Part shown: positions 1,951 to 48,754 of the stretch, piece after piece
How the letters are laid out: each line of letters starts with the position of its first letter
Numbering within the stretch: position 1 is the stretch's first letter
IMG/VR virus record: IMGVR_UViG_3300021255_002485
Span: 67,802 to 131,801 of that record
Direction: 5' to 3' (one strand)
Origin: a virus
Taxonomy: Duplodnaviria > Caudoviricetes
DNA: 64,000 nt
Translations under genes and position numbers: made by a program
The notes under the pieces: generated by a model
What the model saw: only the letters and a program-made list of their open reading frames with translations
The model's database searches: none
What the model was told of the DNA's origin: nothing

Positions 1951-1996
1951 AACTCCTCCAGATGAAATATCGTTTTTATTGGAACTTAATCCTTCA

Positions 1997-2248
1997 TCAT
2001 TCTACATTTATTTTCACATTTATTTTTTTTATGTCACAAAGGACGCATAGATATTTAGCTATATCTTCTGCCCACGCTGAGTTTTCCATGTAAATTGTTT
2101 CAGCAAAATGTAACATCGGATTCATATAAATTGCTTTTTCTTCATCAGTAGCTTGTTCAAATTTTTCATAGTCAGAAACAAATTCAGAAAAAATTTTTTC
2201 CATATGATTTAGATATTCTGCCGTTTTTGGTAATTGTTTCTCAAACAT
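1997..2248 (-). CDS. small hypothetical protein
   Basis: ORF with AGGAGG RBS, bounded by junction palindromes. Confidence 0.65.
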   Translation of the reverse strand: MFEKQLPKTAEYLNHMEKIFSEFVSDYEKFEQATDEEKAIYMNPMLHFAETIYMENSAWAEDIAKYLCVLCDIKKINVKINVE

Positions 2249-2279
2249 TGCACATCATTCCTCCTATCAAATTGTACTT

Positions 2280-2555
2280 TTATAATAATTTGGGTAAAAT
2301 CATCTCTTTTATATATTCATCTATTGTTTTCATATTTAAGTTTTCATAAGTTTCAAACTGTCCGAGAATTAATACAAATGATTCATGCTGCGGATCTGAT
2401 GCTCTAACATTTTCATAGAACTTTTCAAGAGCCTCTTCTGATGGATTTACTATACAATATCCTGAACAGTGTCTATATGGATACCATTGCACATATATCA
2501 ATCCTTGCGTTGCACACCAATGACGTAGTTGATTTAATCCATTTATTGTCTTCAT
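2280..2555 (-). CDS. small hypothetical protein
   Basis: ORF with RBS, bounded by junction palindromes at 2266 and 2567. Confidence 0.7.
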   Translation of the reverse strand: MKTINGLNQLRHWCATQGLIYVQWYPYRHCSGYCIVNPSEEALEKFYENVRASDPQHESFVLILGQFETYENLNMKTIDEYIKEMILPKLL

Positions 2556-2587
2556 ATTTTCCTCTCATAAAAAGTTTATTTCATTCC

Positions 2588-44792: not shown

Positions 44793-46738
44793 GCAGTTTC
44801 CTCCATATCCTTATGCCATTTACCAGTTTCGGGATCGCAGATATATCCTGCCTTTTCTGCATTGTATTCACTTGCAAAATGACAACCATCTTCAGTTTCA
44901 ACATCGTCACCATTAGGATAAAAATTTTCTCCCGTATAATCATCTACACATGTTTCCTCTTCTCTACACCATTCGTTGATATTTTCGCACCAACGCCATC
45001 CGTCTGCTTCTGCATTCTTGATATTGCGGTAAGTATTCCCTCCGGCACATACCATATCTCCGTCATAGTGGAAATATTCGTTATCATAATCATCGTAATA
45101 GGGCTGATAATAATAGCCTTCAGCATCATCGCAATAATAATAGTCATCATTTCCTGCACATTCGCTATCACAATACCAATTTCCGTCCTCGGTGCAAATG
45201 GCTTCGTCTTCGCTTATACGGGCACCGCAACGCTCACAGACAACACTATCTCCCTCACAGCAATTGATATTCTCGTGGTCATCATGCTCATAACCACACT
45301 GAATACATATTGCAGAAGCATTGATATTAATTTCATCTTCGGTGTTAATTGTGTCGTCTATCTTCAAAAATGACATCACTGAATCGGAACAGCAAGTCCA
45401 ATCGTCGTATGCGCAGCCGCCCATATTCGACATATTACTGCTACATGCCGAAGTTCCCTTTTCAATTCTCCAAAGGTTATCTACCTCAAGACAATCAGCA
45501 ATTACCTTCTGCATAATTGTCCTAAACTGAGGTGCGTATCCCTGATCGCCGTTATCTCTGCCATCGGGATATACTCTGCCTTCATAGAGTTTATCTCCCC
45601 CAATGGCAAAGACAGCTCTCTGCATCTTGTCCTGCAATTCGAATTTCGTTCCATTATATTCTTCATCTACGGTGTAGAAGATGATGCTTGAGGGATCGAG
45701 CATATAGCTGATTGTTCCGGCTGAATACTCTCCGCTATAGTTGTTTCCCTCTCTCCGTCCTTTATCTATTCCGTGACAGCTTCCCCACTTATGACCGAAA
45801 GACATTGTGAGATAGTCAATCGGATTGACAGAGATAATGGTATGACGCTTGATTGTCATGGGATTTATTGCATCTCCCATCTGCGTCTGCTGATATGCCC
45901 AACCGTAGTTTTTTTCTCTCTCAACAAAGTTTCCATTATTGTCGTAAAATGATATATTCCTTATCTCTACAACATCGTCTATACCAAGCGTTTTGCCTAT
46001 CTGGGTCAGCACCTTGGAAAGTTTCTGACCGGGCTTTGCATGGTCGGGAAATCGGGCATTTATGATGTCACAAAGCTCTTTAGAACAAAGATGTATGTTT
46101 TCATCTTCTTTGTGTGTTGACAGATAGTCGTTAATACAACAACTGAGGTCAATAATCTTATCCCTAATTTTAGTCGTTTCTTTGTCAAAGTAGACAATAT
46201 TTCCGTTTATATATCCACTGTTTAATCCACCAAAATGATTTTCGTAATAATCCTCGAATTTATTTCTATCTTTAACATATTCAGATGCATCAATTCCGTT
46301 TAACTTGATGTCCTTTATTCCCCTATATTTCAAAGAACGAATGCAATCAGAGATTACAGATAAACGCTCTTTTATTTCAGCTACTTCTGCCATGTTAAAC
46401 GGCTTTATAAATGTATTTATCTCGTTCTTTTTGATATATGCGTCTACGCACCAATTAAAGAAACGCGTTATCTGATCCAGATTTATTTCTCTCTTGTAAT
46501 CAGAGGTAAACTGGATCTGAAACTTTTCGGGATTCCAATTTGGGTGTTTTGAAAGAGTATTTATTACTCTACCCTTTTCACTTGCCCATCTTCTGACAAT
46601 TTTCCGGAGGGCAAAATCCTCATACTCGTAGTCATACTCGTCAAGGAGTTTTTTCATTTCCTCGATTATGTTATCTTCGAGATTCTGTGAGAGTTCGTAA
46701 CAAGGATTTACCTCAGCCATTACATTATGCATTTTCAT
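44789..46738 (-). CDS. large phage protein with C-terminal Cys/Asp-rich repeats
   Basis: ISVNPIDYLTMS...WGSCH core, GRVYP; repeated CxxC and aromatic-acidic units. Confidence 0.75.
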   Translation of the reverse strand: MKMHNVMAEVNPCYELSQNLEDNIIEEMKKLLDEYDYEYEDFALRKIVRRWASEKGRVINTLSKHPNWNPEKFQIQFTSDYKREINLDQITRFFNWCVDAYIKKNEINTFIKPFNMAEVAEIKERLSVISDCIRSLKYRGIKDIKLNGIDASEYVKDRNKFEDYYENHFGGLNSGYINGNIVYFDKETTKIRDKIIDLSCCINDYLSTHKEDENIHLCSKELCDIINARFPDHAKPGQKLSKVLTQIGKTLGIDDVVEIRNISFYDNNGNFVEREKNYGWAYQQTQMGDAINPMTIKRHTIISVNPIDYLTMSFGHKWGSCHGIDKGRREGNNYSGEYSAGTISYMLDPSSIIFYTVDEEYNGTKFELQDKMQRAVFAIGGDKLYEGRVYPDGRDNGDQGYAPQFRTIMQKVIADCLEVDNLWRIEKGTSACSSNMSNMGGCAYDDWTCCSDSVMSFLKIDDTINTEDEININASAICIQCGYEHDDHENINCCEGDSVVCERCGARISEDEAICTEDGNWYCDSECAGNDDYYYCDDAEGYYYQPYYDDYDNEYFHYDGDMVCAGGNTYRNIKNAEADGWRWCENINEWCREEETCVDDYTGENFYPNGDDVETEDGCHFASEYNAEKAGYICDPETGKWHKDMEETA

Positions 46739-46881
46739 TACCTCCGTCTTTAATTATTGATTGTATCACTTCACAAATTTCGCAGTAATCCATATCTGCG
46801 TTAATATTCCGCAGAATTGCCTTCGCAGCGATGTTAATTCCCTGCTGAATTGCTGTTCCGTAATCCATTACTCTATCCTCC

Positions 46882-47688
46882 TTATGCTGCGAATTTATAT
46901 GCCTTGTTGCCCAACTGCTCCTCGGGAGCTACCTCTCCGGCATTTACGTCCTGCACCATACCGTCCATATCGCTGTCATTAAGAGGGATTGCGATTACCT
47001 CATGAATAGATGATGGAAGGATCATGTATCCGTTAGGGAACATCTCTCTTAGTCTCTCCGTTGCAAACAGGACACTAATAGCTCCGTATATTTTATTTGT
47101 ATTACTTATAACAATCATCTGATTGTCATTTGGCGGAAGAAATATCTCGGGAGTTTCCATTTCTATGAGAATCTTTCTCATTGACTTAATACTGACTTCG
47201 CTTGCAGAATTCTTAAGTGCAATGTTAATGACCTCATCAGCGGTCTTATTCCACCTTTCTAACATACCATTAGTCACCGTAACGGTTCCCTTACCCTCAC
47301 CAAAATCGGCAACCGCATCAATGTAGGGTATAATGATAAGGTCGTCAAAACCTGCATTCGCCGCAGACCGGAATACTTCTGCACTCGTCTTTGCATTAAC
47401 AAGTTTTGCCTTAAGTTTCGGCTCAACATTTTCAAAATTCAGTATGAAATTGACATCAATACTCAGCTGAGCATTTGCCTTCAGGATCTCATCTACCTTT
47501 GCAGCTGCCTCATCTATCGGCGTTATCTTGTCGTAAAACTCATCAATATAAACCACGGGAGAAATATTCGTTCCTTCTTCTCTTCGCTGAATTCCCGTAA
47601 ACACTACTCTGTTGTTTTTCTCGACTTCCCGTACTTCTCCACCAATCTTTGTTGCGATTTCCTCTGCATACTTTCTCTTTGTTATCAT
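46882..47688 (-). CDS. DUF5688-family protein
   Basis: KNN.V..GI, SPVVYID, YGA...., ILPSSIHEVI, MVQDVN. Confidence 0.85.
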   Translation of the reverse strand: MITKRKYAEEIATKIGGEVREVEKNNRVVFTGIQRREEGTNISPVVYIDEFYDKITPIDEAAAKVDEILKANAQLSIDVNFILNFENVEPKLKAKLVNAKTSAEVFRSAANAGFDDLIIIPYIDAVADFGEGKGTVTVTNGMLERWNKTADEVINIALKNSASEVSIKSMRKILIEMETPEIFLPPNDNQMIVISNTNKIYGAISVLFATERLREMFPNGYMILPSSIHEVIAIPLNDSDMDGMVQDVNAGEVAPEEQLGNKAYKFAA

Positions 47689-48754
47689 TTCTTTTTTTCT
47701 CCTATAAAAATGTTATTACATTTATTTTTTATTGTATCAAGGTATTCCCTTAATTTTTGTTTCGCCTCTTTTCTTTCTTCTTCCGTTAAATCTTCTCTCC
47801 AAATATCTTTATCTTTTTGTAAAGGCATATTTTTCTCCTTATGAAATCTGACTTTTATTTACCGTTGCGTTCCCACATTGACTTACCTGATGTCCCATAC
47901 GTATTGAGATACCAATCTTTTATCCTATGTCCGGTTTTCTTCCATTTTTTTGTTCCGACACGAAATTTTCTGTGTTTCATTCCTCTACCTCCTCATCATA
48001 TTCCATTGAATCATATATGACACTGGCGAGCCCGTCTATCTGCTCGACTAACTCTGTAAGGGTATTTGATATTCCCTTTAAATATTCGTATATCAGTTCC
48101 TTTTCGTTCATCGCACTATACCCTCCTTTTAATTATTGTGCTTATGATGCGGTATCTTACGTTATTTACCAACTTCATCGCATCTTCCTTTGCTGGACAC
48201 ACTCGTGGTGTCGCTCCAATGACAATCCACTTGGTATCATTTACCTTAATAGCCATAGTCGTATTCATCCAGAAATATTGTCGTTTGAGTATATAACAAC
48301 GTTATCTTGTCTTTTCCTTCAGATATTTTTATTATCTCATCCGGTTTGATTCTGTATTTATTCAAATATAATGTAAGACTTTCAAAGTCATAAAACATTT
48401 TGGTTATATAAGTCATTTCTGTCCTCTCGTTGGCAATACCTTTCCGCCTATTACCTGCCACTTTTCTCCGTTTATGGAGATTATATCTCCCTTGTGAAGA
48501 AGATCTGTAGTATCCGGTGTGTCGTACTCTCCTGTTGTTATGTTTTTTATGATGATGTTATACATATATACTCCTTTCTTTTAATTTTGTCAACTTATTT
48601 TTTTAATCCGGCATATTATGCCTTGCCGTGGTAAGGATACGACTGACCTCACCCTCCGTGGTTGCTTTCCCTATACGCTCCGCAACAGACTTGCCATATA
48701 AAGTGATTGCAGCTTGCTTTGCCTGTTTGCGGTATGCCTTGAATTCGGTTTCCG

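Follow-up and report, generated by a model that had tools for sequence, protein, structure and literature searches.

A long-standing question is how phages exchange small accessory genes with unrelated neighbours when long homology is lacking. It is raised by a 64,000-nucleotide stretch of phage DNA (the window; positions 67,802 to 131,801 of IMG/VR record IMGVR_UViG_3300021255_002485), which forms the latter half of a phage contig of 131,801 bp from gut samples and in which an 18-bp palindrome made of two 6-bp arms round a 6-bp centre, or spacer, recurs between small genes. The phage is SPbeta-like: an operon of a tyrosine recombinase (here the early recombinase), a DndB-like gene and an MrpR-like gene takes the place of SPbeta yopP-yopQ-yopR. 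An earlier note on this DNA proposed that accessory genes are shuffled as cassettes at the palindromes. In this study, the palindromes were counted against shuffled controls and followed through related phages. Comparison of the sequences indicates that they are very probably crossover points, and the pattern fits in-register exchange between matching spacers, as at pdif or lox sites, not integron-style circles.

The palindromic site

The motif was present as described at all 26 coordinates of the earlier note, including the degenerate copy at 35433, which is one base under consensus length. Matches to ATNAAA-N6-TTTNAT number 23 in the window and 33 over the whole genome, compared with a mean of 2.15 and a maximum of 6 in 60 local dinucleotide shuffles; with spacers of 4, 5, 7 and 8 bp the genome holds 0, 1, 3 and 1 copies, respectively. 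These counts confirm that the enrichment is real and confined to the 6-bp spacing. A position weight matrix gave the core ATRAAA-N6-TTTYAT, with symmetric arms and conservation ending after 6 bp. SPbeta itself carries 34 such palindromes. The spacer had been described as variable, which holds among the sites of one genome but not between phages, where it is conserved. The 35 sites of the genome contain no repeated spacer in either orientation, a uniqueness that by itself is not beyond chance.

Most copies in the early region overlap or directly follow a stop codon, and the next ribosome-binding site (RBS) begins 0-13 bp on. On the coding strand the left arm often contains the upstream stop (TAA or TGA), and the right arm is followed by the next RBS. 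This location, claimed for nearly all copies, does not extend to nine strict copies that are intragenic (0-1 for other spacers). Nor are the replication core (14-25 kb) and the late region free of sites, as had been thought: a strict copy lies at 21199, and the late half of the genome, outside the window, has seven. Strict copies at 9899, 25397 and 43078 and a near-copy at 36202 had likewise been missed, and the largest site-free gap in the genome is 16.4 kb. Most intervals of array 2 (Table 1) hold a single small gene. Between 33 and 52.5 kb there is no promoter or terminator excess; sigma-70-like matches number 44 there compared with 64.7 in shuffles, a weak test of the description of these genes as promoterless. 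In another phage, L044, a repeated, asymmetric box rich in A/T comes after each of the sites at 4008, 13933 and 18545 and may be an operator for a repressor of L044.

Exchange at the sites in related phages

Junctions were analysed in 80 loci of related phages, all of which carry a homologue of the early recombinase. Strict 6-bp sites lay at 67 of 212 and 82 of 243 sharp divergence junctions, compared with 0-8 for spacers of 4, 5, 7 or 8 bp. Where one flank was shared and the other unrelated, the spacer was identical in 123 of 148 pairs (83%) and had one mismatch in 11 more, and its per-position identity averaged about 0.89 over a background of 0.24-0.35. The arms, however, are often unlike between phages where the spacer matches. 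Ten four-gamete quartets over five spacer classes present all combinations of two upstream and two downstream flanks round one spacer. In the quartets, whose counts, like those of the pairs, are not fully independent, the left arm stays with the flank upstream of it in 3/3 cases and the right arm with the flank downstream of it in 7/8. Since the arms segregate with their own flanks, the crossover is confined to the centre.

The order of the spacers is conserved as well. Those of array 2 recur in the same order and orientation in phages L010 (six spacers), L099 (seven), L012 (five) and L018 (five), with a permutation p of at most 0.01, and the reverse complement of a shared spacer was never seen; four spacers of array 1 keep their order in phage L004. 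The small genes concerned, about 70, include only five cross-phage homologous pairs, none of them between the same two addresses. Adjacent duplicate spacers are found at two of 617 strict sites. All four empty-versus-filled cases are deletions between similar, non-identical centres, and the spacer is duplicated in none of them. The cassette proposal is partly upheld: accessory genes come, go and are replaced by recombination at the sites, whose geometry is that of a tyrosine recombinase. Excision and reinsertion in the manner of integrons or Tn916 is not supported, because both alleles share spacers at most junctions, duplicate spacers are almost absent and spacer order is fixed.

Between SPbeta and phi3T, eight of 28 junctions are at sites and none at palindromes with other spacers. 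In laboratory hybrids of phi3Ts and SPbeta the crossovers fall within identical blocks of 1.4-18 kb and are hence uninformative; those natural blocks begin or end at sites. A 1,404-bp block of phi3Ts (104631-106034), identical to SPbeta and with a site at each end, is a candidate natural site-to-site exchange.

Two observations speak against the sites as the places of exchange. About half of the divergence junctions are site-less and lie at RBS or start-codon microhomologies, and one laboratory crossover between phi3T and SPbeta took place in 39 bp without a site. Ordinary recombination therefore also shapes these genomes. Both observations also favour the view that the sites are protein-binding or structural marks, occupied by YomM or some other protein without strand exchange, and that crossovers occur there because the marks are the sole islands of identity between unrelated genes, used by a phage annealing protein or host recombination. 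A Sak4-like AAA_24 gene of the annealing-protein type is present in the window (19571-20758), and PeSL cassettes provide a precedent (PMC2839356). However, the identity needed is only about 12 bp, the centres match while the arms differ between phages, and the arms follow their own flanks; conserved, ordered centres and the invariant catalytic residues of the YomM protein described below would be left unexplained. We consider this view unlikely.

Movement of genes in the window

Several genes of the window have moved with site borders. The gene for a 91-residue protein (2280-2555) has a 98% identical copy in a different phage and a different neighbourhood. The identity block begins with the first base of site 2567 and ends with the last base of site 2266, and both spacers are kept while arm positions differ. 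For a 76-residue gene (36626-36856), identity with the copy in phage L009 ends exactly at the spacer border of site 36612. A 3.8-kb sheep-gut contig has only 37597-37779 in common with the window (one mismatch), that is, from site to site. A second sheep-gut contig fuses sites 35677 and 35892 within their spacers and lacks the 61-residue gene between them; its joint (35684-35900) has two extra A between the sides. A list of 20 loose contig ends gives only a weak hint, with about five of them no more than a few bases from a site. On the other side, shared genes for 213- and 59-residue proteins start at the start codon with no common upstream site, and some genes have changed slot without keeping their sites; not every move, therefore, uses sites.

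Two further observations concern array 2. Genes 34329-34540 and 35451-35667 are paralogues (75% identical in DNA and 72% in protein), and the latter lies between two same-centre sites, one of them a base short, possibly a relic of duplication or insertion. In sequencing run X2 the main contig agrees with the window over 33000-37103 and departs from it shortly after site 37085, and the next gene has a lower depth; these may be two alleles of the slot in one sample.

The candidate recombinase

The evidence from sequence comparison makes it likely that the sites are acted on by a tyrosine recombinase. The phage has three such enzymes and one integrase-fold repressor. The earlier note favoured the early recombinase (24840-25835), which might excise and insert single-gene circles like an integron integrase. 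This protein is 21% like YopP and catalytically intact (R-K-H-R-H-Y); its gene adjoins the arrays, homologues accompany all loci of the junction analysis, and the intervals are promoter-poor and hold single genes. Close homologues, however, are found equally in complete phages without an array, at least eight of which have 0-4 sites, and the scarcity of duplicated spacers and the fixed order of addresses also oppose insertion of circles. The early recombinase is probably not the site enzyme, and integron-like activity on its part is very unlikely. Single-protein scans with the early recombinase and the repressor gave zero matches in viral contigs or cultured phages.

When six site-rich and seven site-poor complete phages were compared gene by gene, a single gene of this genome separated the two groups; it lies at genome positions 13902-14909. 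Its product belongs to Pfam PF00589 and is a homologue of SPbeta YomM (26% identity over the full length, E 3e-22), with which it is also placed by a tree. The catalytic R, K, H, R, H/W and Y are kept, and the fold is XerA-like, with a core-binding and a catalytic fold. In both this phage and SPbeta the gene lies in the virion-gene region. For a wider tally, phages were picked by recombinase or capsid protein, with carriers of the yomM homologue at least 70% complete and SPbeta included; site-rich meant at least nine sites and at least three times the control. All 22 carriers are site-rich, compared with none of 16 complete non-carriers. Complete or near-complete carriers have 5-33 extragenic sites; non-carriers have 0-3, apart from phage G018 with 8. 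Intragenic sites number 69 in carriers, where 33.7 are expected, and 15 in non-carriers, where 16.3 are expected; the intragenic sites of the present genome lack conservation in distant relatives. Carriers are separated only moderately by a loose RBS-linked core pattern. Six carriers are site-rich only with a variant arm, AAGAAA, which was found de novo, and they have spacers in common with other carriers. YomM homologues also occur in unrelated cultured phages, of which BtCS33, Tsamsa and phiLM33 are clearly site-rich (figure pairs 8/0, 32/7 and 35/9, respectively), whereas phi105, A118, 80alpha and phiCD119 have no YomM and 1-2 sites each. On this co-occurrence, a correlational link, we hold it fairly probable that YomM is the site enzyme.

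Several points weigh against this assignment. Five independent pairs on a head-protein (capsid-portal) tree all agree (5/5), but the resulting p=0.0625 is the minimum possible with five pairs, which puts significance out of reach for this test. Only when six carriers had failed the first arm pattern was a second (WWGAAA) adopted, although non-carriers stay at control level under the second. The carriers SA2, 949 and GR1 are only about two-fold over control. Conversely, Wbeta has six sites (control 1) with no YomM match, and phages G018 and G070 have 7-9 sites without YomM; these exceptions would need activity in trans or recent loss. The yomM homologue of site-rich phage G043 (G043:C1:88630-89634) contains a TAG, which makes it a pseudogene or the genome recoded. 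Finally, arm variants do not follow YomM clades, and arms of 6 bp are short for a tyrosine recombinase core. As a side observation, a YomM-negative phage of 29% G+C, L091 (G032), has a mild excess of 7-bp-spaced matches (five near its recombinase, where 0-1 are otherwise found, and nine in the genome with a control of three), perhaps by chance.

The presence of sites in a few phages without yomM could also mean that host XerC/XerD act on them, as they do on the pdif sites of Acinetobacter, which share the 6-bp centre and its compatibility logic (PMC11705084). In the pdif/xrs modules of Acinetobacter Rep_3 plasmids, an ATAA-central region-TTAT core joins distinct XerC and XerD arms, and identity of the centre sets compatibility (PMC11705084). 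The present sites resemble these modules in several respects: many two-armed sites with 6-bp centres surround accessory genes, only matching centres recombine, and exchange has been proposed to proceed by cointegrate formation followed by resolution at a second pair. However, Xer sites need ATAA-centre-TTAT, and the sites here are RAAA-centre-TTTY, with short, symmetric arms; they lie in a phage genome, all co-oriented, 20-50 in a conserved order and also in core genes, and they are linked to a phage enzyme instead of host XerCD/FtsK. A universal host Xer system cannot explain so tight a link to a phage gene, and we regard its action here as highly improbable.

The earlier note had offered an array of repressor-binding sites as its alternative. 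Mycobacteriophage stoperators are located at gene junctions, and the sites resemble them in this; they might be stoperator-like operators of the MrpR/SroF-type repressor (22492-23442), blocking elongation between genes. MrpR does bind several sites in SPbeta (PMC10516654), and its operator, SPBRE or the SroF (MrpR) box, is like the palindrome a repeated element of the same phage family associated with an integrase-fold protein. That operator, however, is asymmetric, promoter-located, present in about ten copies, bound by a monomer and non-catalytic (PMC10516654; bioRxiv 2025.11.27.690993). The published box of 15-26 bp (26 bp for SroF) does not fit the palindrome, which stands at stop-RBS junctions and within genes; chromatin affinity purification sequencing of MrpR gave ten promoter peaks, whereas the palindromes of SPbeta number 34. 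The distribution of MrpR-like genes does not follow that of the sites: such genes are present in site-poor G009, G024 and G025 and went undetected, with a small profile, in site-rich G014, G016 and G023. Operators would also give no reason for conserved centres. This alternative is accordingly disfavoured, and there is very little probability that it is correct.

Comparison with other recombination systems

Phage P1 has one lox site and a phage tyrosine recombinase, Cre, that requires spacer identity; engineered heterospecific lox sites allow cassette exchange. The present system shares with P1 the candidate phage tyrosine recombinase and the spacer identity, and also, as reported for SPbeta-like phages, headful packaging with circular permutation. 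It differs in that dozens of mutually incompatible sites tile the genome, which makes it a natural multiplexed version. The coupling sequences of Tn916 and Tn1549 also place a 6-bp centre between A/T-rich arms for a tyrosine recombinase, and mismatched centres are tolerated there. Such tolerance predicts different spacers at about half of the junctions; the 123 identical spacers among 148 pairs therefore exclude it here, and the arm polarity is opposite. In integrons (IntI, attI/attC), too, small genes are arrayed singly between recombination sites. In contrast to integrons, site order here is fixed, with no sign of circle insertion or reordering; the candidate enzyme is 53-90 kb off in a virion operon, and the recombinase adjoining the arrays does not track the sites. 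Sites of 18 bp with 6-bp A/T arms are also far shorter than attC, a comparison by length with no attC model search made. The PeSL cassettes of T4-type phages are promoter-terminator units of about 100 bp that move by homologous recombination and minicircles (PMC2839356). As with PeSL, repeated intergenic elements channel the exchange of small accessory genes in variable regions of phages; unlike PeSL, the conserved part is 18 bp, the centres are unique and there is no excess of promoters or terminators.

Proposed mechanism

The palindromes would be the core sites at which a tyrosine recombinase of the phage acts, and the YomM-like enzyme of the late operon is the most likely one. One protomer would bind each arm (core RAAA or TTTY), strands would be exchanged across the 6-bp centre, and only same-centre sites would recombine. 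Since each centre is unique in the genome, events would take place in register between two genomes. Between sister copies they would alter topology only (circles, concatemers and branches), a role that would explain the sites inside core genes, their spread every 1-16 kb, their uniqueness across the genome and the lateness of the enzyme. With a related phage or prophage in the same cell, a first crossover would fuse the two genomes and a second, at another matching address, would swap the genes between. Accessory regions would have gained sites until each gene had its own, and the result would be a series of slots in fixed order through which genes come and go. From the comparisons we infer catalysis by YomM, the two-step route and the role in genome processing; a YomM-like recombinase acting on matching-centre sites is the best explanation of the whole, and we place a fair degree of confidence in it.

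The sites inside core genes, the intragenic excess in carriers and the even spacing seen in some genomes suggest the genome-processing role. Even spacing was noticed post hoc in four genomes: the lytic Enterococcus phage 9183, a YomM carrier, has nine sites about 10 kb apart (P 1.4e-4), GR1 gave P 0.01, and SA2 and 949 were not significant. SPbeta-like phages package by headful with circular permutation (bioRxiv 2021.11.22.469490). Their terminal redundancy may be near 2 kb, and a length of that order would not suffice for circularization in its simple form.

Site coordinates and neighbouring genes

Coordinates are collected in Table 1. A third tyrosine recombinase of 403 residues (G000:C1:55618-56829, outside the window) groups in the tree with ordinary integration enzymes. 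The replication module includes a class-V aminotransferase gene (cysteine desulfurase-like; 16157-17290) kept in most relatives. An RNA ligase of the PHA02142 type is encoded at 10271-11455, and an HNH endonuclease (37914-38630) adjoins array 2. In the close strain L002 a divergent block, 29556-30950, covers three to four genes up to radC, and its edges are not at sites.

Table 1. Sites, mobile genes and recombinase-related genes (window coordinates unless marked genome).
Feature	Coordinates	Strand	Remarks
Array 1	1962-5083		Sites 1962, 2266, 2567, 3622, 3875, 4421, 4611, 5066 between small minus-strand genes
91-aa gene (2280-2555) and both flanking sites	2266-2584	-	98% identical site to site in other phage
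Intergenic site	7449-7466		
Strict intragenic site	9899-9916		
Junction site	12379-12396		
Strict site within replication-core gene	21199-21216		
MrpR/SroF-like integrase-fold repressor	22492-23442	-	No HxxR motif seen; not tracking sites
DndB-like gene	23449-24675	-	yopQ position of SPbeta repressor operon
Early tyrosine recombinase	24840-25835	-	Intact R-K-H-R-H-Y; in site-rich and site-poor phages
Strict site within early recombinase gene	25397-25414		
Junction site	29363-29380		Same spacer comes after array in phage L099
Array 2, first part	33619-37778		Sites 33619, 34545, 35226, 35433 (short), 35677, 35892, 36202
Array 2, remainder	33619-37778		Sites 36413, 36612, 36880, 37085, 37452 (degenerate), 37594, 37761
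61-aa gene (35691-35876) and flanking sites	35677-35909	-	Missing from sheep-gut relative
45-aa gene (37608-37745) and flanking sites	37594-37778	-	Shared site to site with sheep-gut contig
Strict site	43078-43095		
Sites 47704 (degenerate) and 47841 around 47-aa gene	47704-47858		
YomM-like tyrosine recombinase	genome 13902-14909	+	53 kb upstream of window start; virion-gene region

Biological implications

Neither the sites nor a function of YomM turned up in literature searches, which did not extend to subscription papers; the sites are general to a large phage group and apparently unpublished. We suggest, tentatively and with some doubt, that widespread Firmicutes phages (SPbeta-like, Tsamsa, Camtre, Denver, Sextaec and others) may use a late tyrosine recombinase on dozens of self-incompatible, address-coded sites that tile the genome. 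The system might have originated in circularizing or debranching permuted genomes at any position, and temperate lineages might have expanded it to gene-by-gene crossing-over with an address scaffold that is public across phage species. The exchange points are defined here to the base and a candidate enzyme is named, both of them present in SPbeta, the model phage of Bacillus subtilis. If the proposal is true, a compact recombinase would work with many 6-bp addresses that exclude one another, and nature would have supplied a set of orthogonal recombination sites. It would also supply a rule for calling cassette boundaries in gut phages and a site-specific mechanism for phage mosaicism.

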